Below, one piece after another: positions 13,302-32,000 of a stretch of 32,000 nt of DNA. This DNA is from Candidatus Saccharimonadota bacterium (GTDB lineage: Archaea; Micrarchaeota; Micrarchaeia; Micrarchaeales; Micrarchaeaceae), in NCBI GenBank assembly GCA_963705375.1, contig OY970071.1, positions 540,001 through 572,000 of the forward strand, written 5' to 3'. The translations under genes and the position numbers were made by a program. The stretch's first letter is position 1. Each line of letters opens with the position of its first letter. Below the pieces are notes generated by a model. That model saw only the letters and a list, made by a program, of their open reading frames with translations. It ran no database searches and was not told the DNA's origin.

Positions 13302-14385
13302 CAACGCCAATAAATAAGTAAAAGGCTAAATAGACTCCAGTCGATGCTGCTGGAGAACACCGCTATCAGATTTCGACAGCCATGCAAGTCAGCCCTGCGA
13401 CTTCGCAGGACGGCGAACGGCTCAGTAACACGTAGTCAATCTAACGCAAAGAGGTGGATATCCTCGCGAAAGTGAGGTTAATACACCATACGCTATTGCA
13501 CCTGGAAAGAGCGATAGTATAAAGGCGCACGAAATGTAGTGTTGCCACTTTGCGATGAGACTGCGGCGGATCAGGCAGATGGTGGGGTAACTGCCCACCA
13601 TACCAATAACCCGTAGGGGATGTGAGAGCAAGCGCCCCGAGAAGGGCACTGAGATAAGGGCCCTAGCGCTACGGCGTGCAGCAGGCGCGCAAACTTCACA
13701 ATGCGCGAAAGCGTGATGAGGGGAATCTGAGTGGATAACTTTTAGTTATCCTTTTGCCAAGTATATCAAGCTTGGCGAATAAGTGCTGGGCAAGACAGGT
13801 GGCAGCCGCCACGGTAATACCTGCAGCACAAGTGGTGTTCACGATTATTGGGCTTAAAGCGCTCGTAGCTTGCATGTTCCGTCTTGTGTGAAATATTGGT
13901 GCTCAACATCAATGCGAGCACGAGATACCGACATGCTGGGGAGCGGGTGAGGTCAGGGGTACTTATAGGGGAGGGGTTAAATCCTGTAATCCTATAAGGA
14001 CCAACGGTGGCGAAGGCGCCTGACCAGAACGCATTCGACAGTGAGGAGCGAAGGCTAGGAGAACGAATCGGATTAGATACCCGAATAGCCCTAGCAGTAA
14101 ATTATGCAGACTCTAGTGTTGCACGTGACACGATCACGTGCAGTACCGTAGCGTAAGCGTTAAGTCTGCCGCCTGGGGAGTACGGCCGCAAGGTTGAAAC
14201 TTAAAACAATTGGCGGGGGAGCACCACAAGGGGTGGATGCTGCGGTTCAATTGAACTCAACGTCGGAAATATTACCAGGAGCGACGGCAGTATGAAGGTC
14301 AAGCTAAAGACTTTACCTGACAAGCCGAGAGGTAGTGCATGGCGATCGTCAGCTCGTGGTGTGAACTGTCCGGTTAAGTCCGGTA

Positions 14386-14897
14386 AGCTGGTGAGTAATT
14401 GGCTAGAAGGCTCGCATTGAATCCAGATATATGCTACATGCTTGGTCTGTACGCAAGCAATTTGCGTGCAGAGTCGGCAGTAGTGACAACAGTGGGCAGC
14501 GATGCCCTTGTCGAGCGCTTCGTCAAGATAGCAGTTCAGCAGTTGGGCATAGAACCAGGAAAGATCCTGATAAGGGACCTTGGTACGCGCAAGAGCGCGT
14601 TTTTCTATAACTCTAAGCTGAGAAAGCATCTTGATAACGCATTGGAGCGCAAGGAACATATCTTCAAGTACAGGAACGAGTATTCGGCCAGTTATTTTGC
14701 GGCTCTCTTCGACTGCAATGGAGTGACAGGCGCTAGCGGCACATACATAATCCGCCTTAGTGCTTTCGATTCCCTTCTTCTTGAGAAGCTGGGATTCCAC
14801 ACATTGACAAAGAGAGGCAGATGTTACATCGCGAACTCGTTAGACTTTATGATTTTCATAAAGCCTTTTAGCATATCAATTGCTCATCAGCCCGGTT
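14386..14897 (+). mobile_element. Archaeal BHB-type intron within the 16S rRNA gene, near the E. coli position 1100 region
   Basis: The conserved GTTAAGTCCGGTA / ACGAGCAAGACCC is interrupted. The central helix is CCGG (14380-83) paired with CCGG (14892-95). There are 3-nt bulges TAA (14384-86) and TTA (14896-98), and a 16-bp inner helix (14387-14402 with 14876-14891). The exact junction could shift by 1-2 nt. Confidence 0.75.
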
Positions 14898-14917
14898 ACG
14901 AGCAAGACCCTTGCTGA
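14399..14917 (+). CDS. Intron-encoded double-motif LAGLIDADG homing-endonuclease-like protein
   Basis: 172 aa, with motif 1 YMLGLYASN and motif 2 YFAALFDCNG about 86 aa apart. The TTG start directly follows an in-frame TAA. The ORF runs 20 nt into the 3' exon. Confidence 0.75.
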   Translation: MARRLALNPDICYMLGLYASNLRAESAVVTTVGSDALVERFVKIAVQQLGIEPGKILIRDLGTRKSAFFYNSKLRKHLDNALERKEHIFKYRNEYSASYFAALFDCNGVTGASGTYIIRLSAFDSLLLEKLGFHTLTKRGRCYIANSLDFMIFIKPFSISIAHQPGYEQDPC

Positions 14918-15366
14918 CAGTTGCAACCTATCCAGCGATGGGTAGGGCACTCTGTCGGGACCGCCTCTGTTTAAAGAGGAGGAAGGAGAGGGCAACGGTA
15001 CGTCAGTATGCTCTGAATCTCCTGGGCCACACGTGGCATACAAAGGTTGGCACAATGGGATGCAATACCGAAAGGTAAAGCAAACCCCCTAAAACCAACC
15101 CTGGTTCGGATTGAGGGCTGAAACCCGCCCTCATGAAGCTGAAATCCCTAGTAATCGCTTGTCAACATCGAGCGGTGAATCTGTCCCTGCTCCTTGCACA
15201 CACCGCCTGCCAAGTCACCCAAGTGGGGTCCTAGCGAGGTTGTGCCTTTGGCATAATCGAGTTAGGATTCTGTAAGGAGGGCTAAGGCATAACAAGGTAT
15301 CCGTAGGGGAACCTGCGGATAGATCACCTCAAATATCATTTAGTGTGCATAATAACAGCAATCGAA

Positions 15367-20909: not shown

Positions 20910-21530
20910 TCACTTCTTTGCTGTTGGTGCAGCGCCCTTGCCCTTCGCCGCTCCGGCTGCCGGCGCCGCTCCGCCCTTCGCGTTGTCTTTCTGCAATGCC
21001 GCAGCCTGGGCTTCCTTCACTGCCTTCTTTGTCACGCCGACAGTCACGCCAGTCCTACCCGTTGAACGGGTGTGCTGGCCCCTGACGCGTTGGCCATACT
21101 GGTGCCTGAATCCGCGCCATGTCCTTGCATTGACGTCTCGGTTTACGTCCTGCCTTATTGCAAATATAAGATCGTTGCCTGAAAGATACAGACCCTTGCC
21201 AGAATCCATGTCCTTGTTCCTATTCAGCATATAGCTAGGGATCCCTGTACTCGAAGGATCTTTTACTATGCGCTCTATGCTCTGTATCTGTTCCTCACTA
21301 AGCGAACCTATAGAAGTTTTCCTGATTATTCCGAGTTTTGCTTCTACCTCGTATGAAAGAGCATGTGCCATGCTAGAGCCTATGCCTTTTACTTGGTCTA
21401 GAGCACGTTCTATGTTAAGTGCACCGTTGACATCCTTGCCGACTATGCGCACTATCGAGAGAGCGCTGCCCGCGACCTCGTTCCTCGACTTGGATTGCCT
21501 TTCCTCTTTTTTCTGTTTTTCGTCTGCCAT
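20910..21530 (-). CDS. rps13: 30S ribosomal protein S13 (uS13) with an Ala/Gly/Lys-rich C-terminal extension
   Basis: VRIVGKDVNG, KGIG, WRGFRHQYGQRVRGQHTRSTGR are present, followed by a low-complexity tail of about 40 aa. Confidence 0.93.
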   Translation of the reverse strand: MADEKQKKEERQSKSRNEVAGSALSIVRIVGKDVNGALNIERALDQVKGIGSSMAHALSYEVEAKLGIIRKTSIGSLSEEQIQSIERIVKDPSSTGIPSYMLNRNKDMDSGKGLYLSGNDLIFAIRQDVNRDVNARTWRGFRHQYGQRVRGQHTRSTGRTGVTVGVTKKAVKEAQAAALQKDNAKGGAAPAAGAAKGKGAAPTAKK

Positions 21531-21540
21531 TCAAACACTA

Positions 21541-21653
21541 CGCCAGGGCTGGGATATTCAGGTTTATCTTTTGAACCCAGAAGGCCCCGAAGAGCCATAC
21601 GCTGGCTAGAATCTTTTCCAGGCGTACGCGTTGCCGGATTCTGCCACCCTGGC
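21541..21653 (-). tRNA. tRNA-Ser(GGA), class II, with two introns (12 nt at 37/38 and 15 nt in the T-loop at 59/60)
   Basis: - Acceptor stem: GCCAGGG/CCCTGGC, discriminator G.
- Anticodon arm: stem TACGC/GCGTA; the spliced loop is CTGGAAA.
- Variable arm: long arm GGCTC-TTCG-GGGCC.
- T arm: stem CTGGG/CCCAG; the spliced loop is the canonical TTCAAAT.
- Each intron sits in a 4-bp helix flanked by two 3-nt bulges (details in findings).
- The D stem is weak (2 bp plus an A-C pair). Confidence 0.8.
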
Positions 21654-21678
21654 AGCGTAAATGTTATACTGCTAGGTG

Positions 21679-21685
21679 TATTTAG
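21679..21685 (-). promoter_or_regulatory. Candidate TATA box for tRNA-Ser and the S13 operon
   Basis: The minus strand reads AAAGTGCTAAATAC, and the CTAAATA element ends 25 nt upstream of tRNA position 1. Confidence 0.35.
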
Positions 21686-21743
21686 CACTTTCTTAAGAGC
21701 CAATAACTATTGTTATTGTGGATTTTTAACTATATATGGTGGG

Positions 21744-22136
21744 TCACTTAGAGGGATTGATGATGGTGCAGTTGACCGCAAACACGCATTTGCACTTTTT
21801 AAGGGCGTTGAAGAGCCTTCTTGTGCCTTCAGCGCTCGTATTTACGTCGAGAACGTCTATGCATGTGCCGGCGCTGTGGCGGTGCAGTTCCGCCTGTATC
21901 GAATCCTCAAAGCTGTGCAGCAAATCAAACACACGAGCCTTCTCGTGCTTCTTGTAAGTGAGCACGAACACGCTCTGAACATTCCCGGTCAGAGATTCCA
22001 GAGTCTCATATTCCTTCAATGCGCCCAGTACTGCGTTCCTGAGCAGTTTCGACCTGCTCTTGAATCCGAGAGTGCGCTGTATCGTGTTCAGCCGTTTGAG
22101 AGTTGCGTCGTCTATGGATATGCTAAGTATCGTCAT
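21744..22136 (-). CDS. nikR: NikR-like metal-responsive regulator (ribbon-helix-helix plus a C-terminal metal-binding domain)
   Basis: The N-terminus LSISIDDATLKRLNTIQRTLGFKSRSKLLRNAV has the RHH pattern. The C-terminal HRHSAGTC resembles the NikR HxH...C high-affinity site. It is divergent from the metal ABC importer. Confidence 0.7.
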   Translation of the reverse strand: MTILSISIDDATLKRLNTIQRTLGFKSRSKLLRNAVLGALKEYETLESLTGNVQSVFVLTYKKHEKARVFDLLHSFEDSIQAELHRHSAGTCIDVLDVNTSAEGTRRLFNALKKCKCVFAVNCTIINPSK

Positions 22137-22166
22137 TTAATCAACAATATGCTTTTATCGGAAAGA

Positions 22167-22195
22167 TTAATAAGTTTTCATGATTTAGTTATTAA
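22167..22195. promoter_or_regulatory. Candidate operator: inverted repeat TTAATAA-N15-TTATTAA
   Basis: This is a perfect 7-bp inverted repeat with 15-nt spacing in the nikR-like/importer intergenic region, 8 nt upstream of the importer ATG. It is AT-only, so chance occurrence is possible. Confidence 0.3.
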
Positions 22196-22202
22196 CGATT
22201 TA

Positions 22203-23147
22203 ATGGTTGCAGCAGACAGATATGCGGCGATAGGGATCGTGGCCGTCGTGGTTGCAATTGTGGCAATCGCAGGCCTTGCTGTGCAAGGCACGCATGCAAG
22301 CAGACCAATTTCAAACCAGAGCGCAGGCAGAGCAGTACAAATCGTCGCGGCAGAGAATTTCTGGGGAAGCCTTATGCAGCAGATCGGAGGAAGCCACGTC
22401 AATGTGACGAGCATCGTTACTGATCCGAATGCTGATCCACACGAATACCAGAGCAGCATCGCCAATGCAAGAGAGATAGCAAAGGCCCAGATCATCGTAG
22501 TCAACGGAGCAGGATATGACGACTGGGCACTCAAGCTCGTATCAGCAGAAAACAGCACAAGCCAAACTGTACTGGATGTCGCCAGCCTGCTGGGAATGGC
22601 CAACGGCACCAATCCTCATTTCTGGTACAACCCGTCTTACGTGAATGCGACAGTTAAGCAGATGTACACAGACCTAGTCAAAACAGACCCGGCAGACGCT
22701 AGCTATTATCTGCAGAGATATGAAGCGCTTAATGCATCGCTTGCGCAGGTAGACAGCAGGATCTCAGATATCAGGCGGCAGTTCGCAGGCACCAGGGTGG
22801 CAGCAACTGAGAGCATCTTTGTATATCTGGCGAACGCTACAGGCCTTGATCTGGTGTCACCCCCGGAATTCATGAACGCAGTATCAGAAGGCGTAGACCC
22901 GCCGGCGCAGAGCGTTGTGCAATTTGAGAACCAGATTGAGAGTGGAAACGTTAGCGTACTTGTATACAATGAACAAACAGTAAATCCGCTCACGCAGCAG
23001 ATGAAACAAATAGCTTCGCTGCATAACGTCACTGTAGTCGGCGTGACCGAAAACATCCAGCCTCCGGACAGCACATTCCAAGCCTGGATGACTGCTGAAC
23101 TGCTAAACCTGCAGAGCGGCCTCAGCGCAAATGTGCTTGAGAGGTGA
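22203..23147 (+). CDS. Metal ABC transporter substrate-binding protein (ZnuA/TroA-like)
   Basis: It has a signal anchor (MVAADRYAAIGIVAVVVAIVAIAGLAV), followed by VAAENFWGSL, TDPNADPHEYQ and VVNGAGYDDW. The track ORF 21495-23147 is an artefactual upstream extension. Confidence 0.8.
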   Translation: MVAADRYAAIGIVAVVVAIVAIAGLAVQGTHASRPISNQSAGRAVQIVAAENFWGSLMQQIGGSHVNVTSIVTDPNADPHEYQSSIANAREIAKAQIIVVNGAGYDDWALKLVSAENSTSQTVLDVASLLGMANGTNPHFWYNPSYVNATVKQMYTDLVKTDPADASYYLQRYEALNASLAQVDSRISDIRRQFAGTRVAATESIFVYLANATGLDLVSPPEFMNAVSEGVDPPAQSVVQFENQIESGNVSVLVYNEQTVNPLTQQMKQIASLHNVTVVGVTENIQPPDSTFQAWMTAELLNLQSGLSANVLER

Positions 23148-23153
23148 GTAAGG

Positions 23154-23975
23154 ATGAAAACCCCGAACACCAAAAGAATGCAACCATCGATGCCAAAAAT
23201 GGTGGTCGAGGCCAAGAACCTTGCAGCAGGCTATAGGGGAAGACCTGTCTGGCGCGATGCTAGCTTCAGAGTTAATCGAGGGGAATTTGTTGCAGTCATA
23301 GGCCCAAACGGAGCAGGCAAGACAACACTGTTCCGCCTACTTCTTGGCCTGCAACAGCCAGTAAGTGGAACGATAAAAGTGTTAGATACACCACCCAGGC
23401 GAGGCAATCCTAAAATAGGGTATGTGCCCCAGCGACACACCATAGATAACGAGAACAACATCGAATGCCTTGAACTGCTCCGCCTTGCATTCTCTGGAAA
23501 TAGGTTGGGGTTTAGTTTATCGTATGGAGAGGAGAAGAAAGCTGCAAATGATGCATTGGACAGAGTCGGAGCTACAGAGCTCGGAAACAAACCTCTTGGT
23601 TCGATGTCAGGAGGAGAATTGCAGAGAGTCTTTCTTGCAGAGGCACTGGTCAGCAACCCAGAGATGCTGCTTCTTGATGAGCCTTTGGCTAGCCTAGACA
23701 TAAGGAGAACCAAGGAATTGGTGGGTGTGATAAATAGAGTTGTCAAATCGCAGAATGTTACCGCATTCCTTGTGGCACACGATATCAACCCATTAATACA
23801 GTTTCTTGACAAGGTTATTTACATAGCGAACGGCAAGGTGGCGGCAGGAACACCCAAAGATATATTGACTTCCAAGAGTCTGACAGCATTGTATGAAACG
23901 CAGGTCGAGGTCCTGAAGGATTCTAGAGGAAACATTGTGGTTTTAGGCGGCGGAGACCATCATGGGGATGAATGA
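23154..23975 (+). CDS. Metal ABC transporter ATP-binding protein (ZnuC-like)
   Basis: Walker A GPNGAGKTT, signature MSGGELQRV, Walker B LLLDEP. Confidence 0.9.
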   Translation: MKTPNTKRMQPSMPKMVVEAKNLAAGYRGRPVWRDASFRVNRGEFVAVIGPNGAGKTTLFRLLLGLQQPVSGTIKVLDTPPRRGNPKIGYVPQRHTIDNENNIECLELLRLAFSGNRLGFSLSYGEEKKAANDALDRVGATELGNKPLGSMSGGELQRVFLAEALVSNPEMLLLDEPLASLDIRRTKELVGVINRVVKSQNVTAFLVAHDINPLIQFLDKVIYIANGKVAAGTPKDILTSKSLTALYETQVEVLKDSRGNIVVLGGGDHHGDE

Positions 23976-24801
23976 TATGACATTCAGCATAAACCTAATC
24001 TCGGATCTTCAGCTCATCTTTCAATACCAGTTCATGCAGCATGCGTTCGAGGCAGGCACCGTTGTTGCAATCGTAGCAGGGATAATAGGCTACCTTGTGG
24101 TCTTGCGCAAGTCATCATTCGCAGCGCACTCCCTTGCAGACATCGGTTTTGCCGGAGCGGCAGGAGCTGTGCTTCTTGGAATAAATCCTGTTTTCGGCCT
24201 ATTATTGTTTACCACAGTGAGCGGTGTTGGAATAGCAGTGCTAGGCAGGAACGCTGTGCACCGCGATGTGGAAATAGGATCAGTCCTCGCATTCACTTTG
24301 GGCTTGGGCGTTCTGTTCATAAGCCTTTATACGGGATATGCGACAGAGGCATACTCCATCCTGTTCGGGGAAATACTGGGCATCAGCAGCATTAATGTGG
24401 CAATAACGCTTGTTGCAAGCCTGGCCATTCTTGCCGTGAGCACTCTTGTATACAGGCCGATCCTGTTCGCTTCATTAGATGAGGATGTCGCAGAAGCAAA
24501 AGGCATGAAAACGCTTGCACTTGGGGTCATTTTCATGCTACTGCTAGCCGTTGCAGTGTCTATCGCAGTCCAGGTTGTTGGCGTTCTCCTCATTTTTGCA
24601 TTGATGGTCACACCGGCAGCAACAGCCATCAGGTTGACGAAGAAACCACTGTACGCCATAACGATTTCCATACTTATCGCCTTGTTAGCGACATGGTCTG
24701 GCCTCTTCATTTCATTCTATGAGCCATACCCTGTGAGCTTCTTCATAACAAGCATAGTTTTTGTGCTTTATTTGATCGTGAGAGTATTTTGCCCGAAATG
24801 A
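23962..24801 (+). CDS. Metal ABC transporter permease (ZnuB/ABC-3 family)
   Basis: 279-aa polytopic protein. It overlaps the ATPase gene by 14 nt and has the typical ABC-3 hydrophobic profile and EILGIS region. Confidence 0.85.
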   Translation: MGMNDMTFSINLISDLQLIFQYQFMQHAFEAGTVVAIVAGIIGYLVVLRKSSFAAHSLADIGFAGAAGAVLLGINPVFGLLLFTTVSGVGIAVLGRNAVHRDVEIGSVLAFTLGLGVLFISLYTGYATEAYSILFGEILGISSINVAITLVASLAILAVSTLVYRPILFASLDEDVAEAKGMKTLALGVIFMLLLAVAVSIAVQVVGVLLIFALMVTPAATAIRLTKKPLYAITISILIALLATWSGLFISFYEPYPVSFFITSIVFVLYLIVRVFCPK

Positions 24802-28238: not shown

Positions 28239-28312
28239 CGGGCCCGGTGGGATTTGGACCCACGACCTACGGATTAAAAGTCCGCCACTCTGCCATGCTG
28301 AGTTACGGGCCC
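28239..28312 (-). tRNA. tRNA-Lys(UUU), no intron, CCA not encoded
   Basis: It folds as a 74-nt cloverleaf:
- Acceptor stem: GGGCCCG/CGGGCCC.
- D arm: ACTC...GAGT.
- Anticodon arm: stem GCGGA/TCCGT, loop CTTTTAA.
- T arm: GTGGG-TCCAAAT-CCCAC.
- Discriminator: G. Confidence 0.93.
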
Positions 28313-31449: not shown

Positions 31450-32000
31450 TTATGCGGATTGAGCGTGCACGAGCAAACGTACCAGATACATGATGGCATA
31501 CGCAGGCTCATATATGATCGGGAACGCAAGCGCACCCTGGCCGAGTGCCTCATAATCGTTCATTATGCTTGCGCCTATCTTGAGAGATATGCCAGTTTCT
31601 TTGTATATGCGCGGGCTCGATATCGAGCTCACCCTGAGCTTCATATTGTAGACTCCAGGCTCATCCTCATATACGCCATACACGAACTGCTGCTTTGTGC
31701 TGTGCAGGGCTATGACGGTCTGCGTCGAGTTCAGGCCAGGAAGCCCGACAGAGGATATGATGAACGGGCTGTCCGATACGCCGGTGTTGTTTATCTGAAC
31801 ATACACGCTTGCGGATTCACCAGGACCCGCGCTCAACTCTGTAGGATGAACGTAGAGCACGAACACGTCAGGCGTAACGTTGACATACGCCTTAAACTTT
31901 AGGCTTCCTATCTTCGAGTAGTTGCCGATGTTTATCGCAGTCAGGTTGAACATGTAGGTGCCGTTGCTTGCGTCGGGTGCGACGGTTATCTTCGCCGAAA
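31450..32000 (-). CDS. Cell-surface/membrane protein fragment (NEW3/CARDB-like repeat, COG1470-like). The 5' end lies outside the window.
   Basis: The reading frame stays open to the window edge. KITVAPDASNGTYMFNLTA and ELSAGPGESASVYVQINNTG resemble the repeat pattern of such proteins. The C-terminal segment is hydrophobic. Confidence 0.45.
   Translation of the reverse strand, partial: SAKITVAPDASNGTYMFNLTAINIGNYSKIGSLKFKAYVNVTPDVFVLYVHPTELSAGPGESASVYVQINNTGVSDSPFIISSVGLPGLNSTQTVIALHSTKQQFVYGVYEDEPGVYNMKLRVSSISSPRIYKETGISLKIGASIMNDYEALGQGALAFPIIYEPAYAIMYLVRLLVHAQSA

Follow-up and report, generated by a model that had tools for sequence, protein, structure and literature searches.

A probable tRNA-Ser(GGA) gene with introns at 37/38 and 59/60 upstream of rps13 in a Micrarchaeota genome

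Immediately upstream of the ribosomal protein gene rps13, on the minus strand of the 32-kb window (the whole stretch of DNA that was analysed), lie 113 nt in which standard tRNA finders report nothing and over which two open reading frames run. Does this stretch hold a working tRNA gene whose exons are separated by short archaeal introns, or does it only look like one? Its anatomy, the cloverleaf that forms after excision of two insertions, and the conservation of both introns with covariation across many species are described below. Our reading, in which we have high confidence, is that this is a functional two-intron tRNA-Ser(GGA) gene of a Micrarchaeota (DPANN) archaeon, whose transcript would be spliced to an 86-nt tRNA.

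Anatomy of the gene and its detection

The extent of the gene was determined from the sequence and with ARAGORN (Table 1). Read 5′ to 3′ on the minus strand, its order is GCCAGGGTGGCAGAATCCGGCAACGCGTACGCCTGGAA / AAGATTCTAGCC / AGCGTATGGCTCTTCGGGGCCTTCTGGGTTCAAA / AGATAAACCTGAATA / TCCCAGCCCTGGCG, in which the segments are exon 1 (38 nt), AAGATTCTAGCC, exon 2 (34 nt), AGATAAACCTGAATA and exon 3 (14 nt). A preliminary description of this DNA had proposed a tRNA-Ser(GGA) with two introns on the minus strand, and its coordinates and sequence details proved right to the base. When both introns are excised, the resulting 86-nt product is called as tRNA-Ser(GGA) by ARAGORN. This product has a perfect 7-bp acceptor stem and anticodon and T stems of 5 bp each; excision also recovers the anticodon loop CUGGAAA and the T-loop UUCAAAU, as had been predicted. 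The variable arm, GGCUC UUCG GGGCC, consists of a 5-bp stem (GGCUC/GGGCC) closed by a UUCG loop. A long variable arm, the serine anticodon GGA and the 3′-terminal discriminator G73 identify the molecule as a class II tRNA-Ser, an earlier assignment upheld by the ARAGORN call on the 86-nt product and by the comparative evidence given below. CCA is not encoded at the 3′ end of exon 3. The spliced tRNA has a single blemish: A12.C23 in the D stem is mismatched, as it is in 9 of 34 distinct orthologues. Thermodynamic folding by itself misses the cloverleaf and predicts an alternative D/T pairing instead.

Table 1. Positions of the tRNA-Ser(GGA) gene, its parts and other features of the window
Feature	Position	Strand	Description
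tRNA-Ser(GGA) gene	21653-21541	-	113 nt
exon 1	21616..21653	-	acceptor 5′ strand, D arm, anticodon stem 5′ strand, loop positions 32-37
anticodon GGA	21617-21619	-	inside exon 1
intron 1	21604..21615	-	12 nt (AAGAUUCUAGCC), canonical position 37/38
exon 2	21570..21603	-	position 38, anticodon stem 3′ strand, long variable arm, T stem 5′ strand, T-loop positions 54-59
intron 2	21555..21569	-	15 nt (AGAUAAACCUGAAUA), position 59/60 in T-loop
exon 3	21541..21554	-	U60, T stem 3′ strand, acceptor 3′ strand, discriminator G
TATA-box-like element CTAAATA	21679..21685	-	-32 to -26 from first tRNA base
rps13 (ribosomal protein S13)	20910..21530	-	Pfam PF00416, E=2e-32
83-aa ORF	21452-21703	-	lies over the tRNA
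550-aa ORF	21495-23147	+	5′ part lies over the tRNA
NikR-like gene	21744-22136	-	ribbon-helix-helix regulator
ZnuA	about 22190-23147	+	listed 550-aa ORF over-extended at 5′ end
ABC-transporter ATPase	23154-23975
ABC-transporter permease	23962-24801
tRNA-Lys	28239-28312		known tRNA
16S rRNA gene	13334-15332	+
16S insertion	14386-14897	+	512-513 nt
ORF in 16S insertion	14399-14917		172 aa

Standard tRNA finders miss the gene because two short archaeal-type introns interrupt its exons. The unspliced locus gave no ARAGORN call, with or without the anticodon-loop intron mode, and no match to the Rfam tRNA model even at E values up to 10. An intron-aware tRNA search had been put forward earlier as a check; ARAGORN failed on the unspliced gene even in intron mode and succeeded on the spliced 86-nt sequence. 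Against the Rfam tRNA model, for which the threshold is 29 bits, orthologues without a T-loop intron scored 54.3 (L086), 47.5 (L015) and 46.6 bits (L066), and both two-intron orthologues tested (L002 and L013) were missed. The L013 orthologue, from Ca. Micrarchaeum sp. A_DKE (NZ_CP060530), spans 2374-2488; its precursor would be 115 nt and its spliced product about 85 nt. The spliced product from the window is 90% identical to that of L066.

As a chance control, we deleted every segment of 8–120 nt with ends capable of forming 3 or more of the 4 possible central-helix pairs of the splice motif described below, on both strands of the whole 32-kb window, and scored the resulting 1,052,603 single-deletion constructs with ARAGORN. 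Matches were confined to the serine tRNA locus (7), edge artefacts arising from the known tRNA-Lys, and one isolated false match. This motif-guided single-deletion scan of the whole window found no further hidden tRNA of the same type.

Owing to the ARAGORN and Rfam misses, a Micrarchaeota genome can appear to be without a decoder for the serine codons UCC/UCU. For DPANN archaea, estimates of both the tRNA complement and the completeness of a genome could be skewed by a missed gene of this kind, whose place in the annotation is taken by spurious ORFs. Training of the intron models in tRNAscan-SE 2.0 drew on Crenarchaeota, Euryarchaeota and Thaumarchaeota (PMC8450103), which makes DPANN cases a useful test set.

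Splice motifs and the splicing endonuclease

The published splice motif is a 4-bp helix between two 3-nt bulges, with the first and second anticodon bases paired to the intron (PMC4090602). At both junctions of the locus we found a 4-bp helix and two 3-nt bulges that contain the splice sites. In intron 1, the central helix joins C32-G35 (CUGG) to CUAG in the intron through 4 pairs, one of them G.U; the outer helix is the anticodon stem, and the bulges AAA (A36, A37 and an intron A) and CCA (C, C and A38) place the site at canonical position 37/38. In intron 2, U54-A57 (UUCA) and UGAA in the intron form 4 Watson-Crick pairs, flanked by bulges AAA (A58, A59, A) and UAU (U, A, U60), and the T stem serves as the outer helix. 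The preliminary description had listed the same elements, namely a 12-nt intron after position 37 with its CUGG/CUAG helix and AAA/CCA bulges, and a 15-nt intron at 59/60 with the T stem as outer helix, UUCA/UGAA and AAA/UAU; all were found as claimed. Its proposal of one cutting rule for both introns, after the second bulge nucleotide, fits the geometry at both junctions, and cutting in this way restores standard 7-nt loops at both sites. Because of runs of A, the sequence does not fix the exact points of cutting; the mature RNA is identical whichever sites are chosen.

Pairing deeper within the introns is minimal. The inner helix of intron 2 is a single G-C pair, and intron 1 has no real inner helix (at most 1 pair). 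Neither window intron has the strict hBHBh′ form, in which a second outer helix lies inside the intron; with inner helices of at most 1 bp, both motifs belong to the relaxed type (hBH/BHL). Since neither intron has a real inner helix, splicing is expected to depend on an enzyme of relaxed specificity. Such a need for a broad-specificity endonuclease would fit the phylum: the ε2 endonuclease of ARMAN-2 (Ca. Micrarchaeum acidiphilum) has been characterised (PMC3239211; PDB 4fz2), and this three-unit enzyme cuts strict and relaxed motifs in vitro (PMC3239211).

The endonuclease gene, EndA, was sought in the 32-kb window by tblastn with ARMAN-2 EndA fragments, taken from a PDB search, and 47 homologues; this returned only noise and no EndA. 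Weak recurrent matches at 31481-31756 were rejected, as their frame is full of stop codons. A profile built from ARMAN-2-like sequences retrieved 3,772 EndA homologues, many of them about 380 aa long, three-unit and labelled Micrarchaeota; the best 120 of the 3,772 matches did not include the EndA of this genome. Many Micrarchaeota EndA entries are only 180–220 aa long and begin inside the middle catalytic unit of the three-unit enzyme. These look like truncated gene calls or contig ends, not a two-unit form.

We infer that the gene is transcribed, that the precursor is cleaved by the cell's own endonuclease and ligated, and that the tRNA is used in translation. Transcription would start from the TATA-like box about 26–32 nt upstream, with rps13, rps4 and rps11 probably on the same transcript. 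The precursor would carry two short bulge-helix-bulge introns, at 37/38 and, in the T-loop, at 59/60. In each motif the 5-bp anticodon or T stem acts as the outer helix, and the first four loop bases pair with the intron's last-but-two bases to form the 4-bp central helix, leaving a splice site after the second base of each 3-nt bulge. Both motifs would be cut by the archaeal endonuclease, most likely a three-unit ε2-type enzyme as in other Micrarchaeota, and the exons would be joined by an RNA ligase. The predicted product is an 86-nt class II tRNA, to which CCA would be added afterwards.

Conservation, linkage to rps13 and alternative readings

Homologues of ribosomal protein S13 assign the genome of the window to Micrarchaeota (DPANN). 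We examined 83 loci, comprising the window, two loci from close relatives (L002 and L005) and 80 further Micrarchaeota loci. The further loci came from a scan by S13 alignment, with one genome per species, that yielded at least 80 Micrarchaeota loci; among the matches listed, the S13 of these species is at most 66% identical to that of the window. A rule-based parser, which required perfect acceptor, anticodon and T stems and left the D and variable stems free, found the gene upstream of rps13 in 46 of the 83 loci (45 besides the window). Both introns are present in 37 of these, only the 37/38 intron in 8, and none in 1. Sequence similarity alone matches 38 loci to the spliced tRNA (score above 100), and the strict stem test was passed by 38 of 38.

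Introns differ in length among the orthologues yet retain the splice motif. The 59/60 intron keeps its 4-bp central helix and 3-nt bulges in 35 of 37 two-intron loci, and in those 35 it is 13–43 nt long with an inner helix of 1–9 bp; in many orthologues the inner helix of intron 2 is 2–9 bp, unlike the 1 bp seen in the window. The 37/38 intron ranges from 11 to 62 nt and keeps 3–4 of its 4 central pairs, with one exception that has 2. The two close relatives, whose S13 is 77–81% identical and whose neighbourhood is the same (NikR-like gene, gap, rps13), have exons 95% identical to those of the window. Their substitutions include a compensatory change of C49:G65 to U:A in the T stem and a change of U.G to U-A in the variable arm. 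Their intron 1 is 11 nt as against 12 nt in the window, one base having been lost, and their intron 2 is 24 or 26 nt as against 15 nt, the change being confined to the loop part. Across 34 distinct spliced sequences, which are 68–95% identical to that of the window, 98.2% of cloverleaf pairs are standard, and 13 of 25 stem pairs carry compensatory changes, compared with 1–3 when the partners are slid. The variable stem covaries among orthologues.

Several individual loci depart from this pattern. In L016 (2376-2487) anticodon-loop position 33, a near-universal U elsewhere, is a C, and the intron base opposite is a G, giving a perfect CCGG/CCGG central helix; this could be exon-intron covariation or a sequencing error. 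Six more distant Micrarchaeota (L053, L071, L075, L078, L079 and L080) carry inserts of about 40–120 nt in the T-loop of tRNA-Ser that end in GCCCAAAAA before UCCCAU and seem to be in a register other than 59/60. Anticodon-loop introns are very long, 80–190 nt, in L074, L077 and L079.

Upstream of the tRNA, the CTAAATA element sits in a block, GCTAAATACACCTA, that is invariant in close relatives, and its flanks vary. In most of 44 distinct upstream regions, (C/T)TAAATA or TTTAAATA occurs at about -33 to -26. The element is a probable promoter of the tRNA and likely also of the downstream rps13 operon. rps13 begins 10 nt past the end of the tRNA, with the genes for S4 and S11 behind it, and this gene order is kept in relatives. 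The spacer between them is 5–44 nt in 34 of the 37 loci with both introns, most of which have GGTG, usually 5–8 nt before the rps13 ATG. The short spacer and the GGTG suggest that the tRNA is excised from a transcript that also carries rps13; the two are probably co-transcribed. A literature search for tRNA-Ser/rps13 linkage in other archaea found nothing usable.

The same spacer lengths bear on a reading in which the tRNA is real and its T-loop intron is kept for expression of the rps13 operon, whether by contributing to an internal promoter or by serving as a checkpoint in the processing of a shared transcript. Spacers are 86–289 nt in 9 of 9 loci without the T-loop intron, some of which have their own TTTAAATA box or a T-run past the tRNA, and mostly short in the loci with it; the intron is rich in A/T, with UA prevailing at the intronic positions of its 3′ bulge, all of which this reading would accommodate. 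Both traits, however, may be co-inherited within one clade. By eye, the intron has no TATA-like box at a fixed distance, pairing with UUCA already accounts for the conserved UGAA, and the GGTG ribosome-binding motif right after the tRNA fits an upstream start and plain co-transcription. We consider a role in rps13 expression very unlikely. An internal promoter in intron 2 was rejected as the main reading on the same two grounds, the missing fixed-distance TATA-like box and the GGTG directly past the tRNA. Only slightly less doubtful is the idea that the T-loop intron is an old, selectively retained feature of a large Micrarchaeota clade, tied to the fusion of tRNA-Ser(GGA) and the rps13 operon; if it were true, T-loop splicing could control how a joint tRNA-mRNA transcript is processed, or the intron could add promoter function.

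A decaying tRNA pseudogene, in which two insertions broke the anticodon loop and the T-loop and the helix/bulge patterns are fortuitous, would explain why standard tools give no call, why the D stem has a mismatch and why inner helices are almost missing from both motifs. It would not explain the recurrence of the same two sites, the 4-bp helix and the 3-nt bulges in at least 35 species whose S13 is only about 45–66% identical to that of the window, nor compensatory exon changes accompanied by introns that shift in length while the motif stays. A pseudogene would also not retain perfect acceptor, anticodon and T stems in 38 of 38 loci found by similarity, and the chance that the locus is one appears slight indeed. 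That the region instead codes for protein, through the 83-aa ORF or the 5′ part of the 550-aa ORF, with an incidental tRNA-like fold, is barely credible: both ORFs are present mechanically, but the former has no Pfam match, the ZnuA match of the latter begins only at residue 283 and its 5′ part is antisense to the conserved NikR-like gene, relatives have ZnuA called at 312–319 aa with no gene called over the tRNA, and length differences of 1, 9 and 11 nt among the relatives would shift any frame. The changes in intron length among close relatives exclude a conserved reading frame. The earlier judgement that the minus-strand ORF and the 5′ part of the plus-strand ORF are spurious was sound; both exist, and neither has support. 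The NikR-like regulator is divergent from the ZnuA/ABC-transporter cluster.

Related introns in other archaea and in the 16S rRNA gene

The functional two-intron gene that we favour has close parallels in Micrarchaeota. Disrupted genes make up 56% of the tRNA genes of ARMAN-2 (Fujishima et al. 2011, PMC3239211). A relaxed (hBH) intron of 13 nt at 59/60 of its pre-tRNA-Cys(GCA) is cut in vitro by ε2 (PMC3239211), and this tRNA shares with the gene described here the phylum, the T-loop site, a very short intron and a relaxed motif without an inner helix. In contrast to that single-intron tRNA, ours is a class II tRNA-Ser with an additional 12-nt canonical intron. [quoted passage not shown]

According to reviews, 59/60 is a recurrent non-canonical site, and in Crenarchaeota a single gene can hold as many as three introns (PMC4090602, PMC4033280). 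As far as the multi-intron tRNAs of Thermoproteales and other Crenarchaeota are covered by the accounts of Sugahara et al. 2007, 2008 and of Marck and Grosjean 2003 (via PMC4033280, PMC4090602), they have at most three bulge-helix-bulge introns per gene, with 59/60 included and often combined with the canonical site, and are served by a broad-specificity endonuclease, as we suppose for our gene. On the same accounts they differ in phylum and in enzyme, which is (αβ)2 there, whereas a three-unit ε2 enzyme is expected for the genome of the window. The preliminary description overrated the rarity of the arrangement, as 59/60 introns and multi-intron tRNAs are documented in both Micrarchaeota and Crenarchaeota (PMC3239211, PMC4090602).

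The locus is a further example of a documented phenomenon, in a phylum where it is expected, and reveals no new mechanism. New is that the 37/38 and 59/60 intron pair is kept in one particular tRNA across a wide span of Micrarchaeota, which takes the record beyond the single genome of ARMAN-2 to dozens of species. Retention of the pair fits long-term coexistence with a broad-specificity endonuclease. The value of the finding lies mainly in annotation, and in the conservation of the two-intron arrangement.

The same window contains a 16S rRNA gene with an insertion after GUUAAGUCCGGUA, at about position 1033 of the Rfam model. The rRNA genes seem to be unlinked, since no 23S rRNA gene lies beside the 16S gene in the whole of the 32-kb window. 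The 172-aa ORF in the insertion has two LAGLIDADG-like motifs by eye; it gave no significant Pfam match (DUF6262, E 0.049, is chance-level and below the cutoff) and no PDB match, so it is these two motifs that suggest a homing endonuclease. At the ends of the insertion, a 15-bp helix lies beside a 4-bp CCGG/CCGG helix with a 3-nt bulge; a cut placed after the second base of the bulge brings back the conserved GUUAAGUCCGGUAACGAGC. The insertion is probably a bulge-helix-bulge rRNA intron. Archaeal rRNA introns of this type follow the same splice-motif logic as tRNA-Ser(GGA); the one in the window differs from the tRNA introns in being far longer (about 512 nt), ORF-bearing and located in rRNA. 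From its sequence it would be a second substrate of the tRNA cutting rule in the same genome, and we count it in favour of the two-intron reading.
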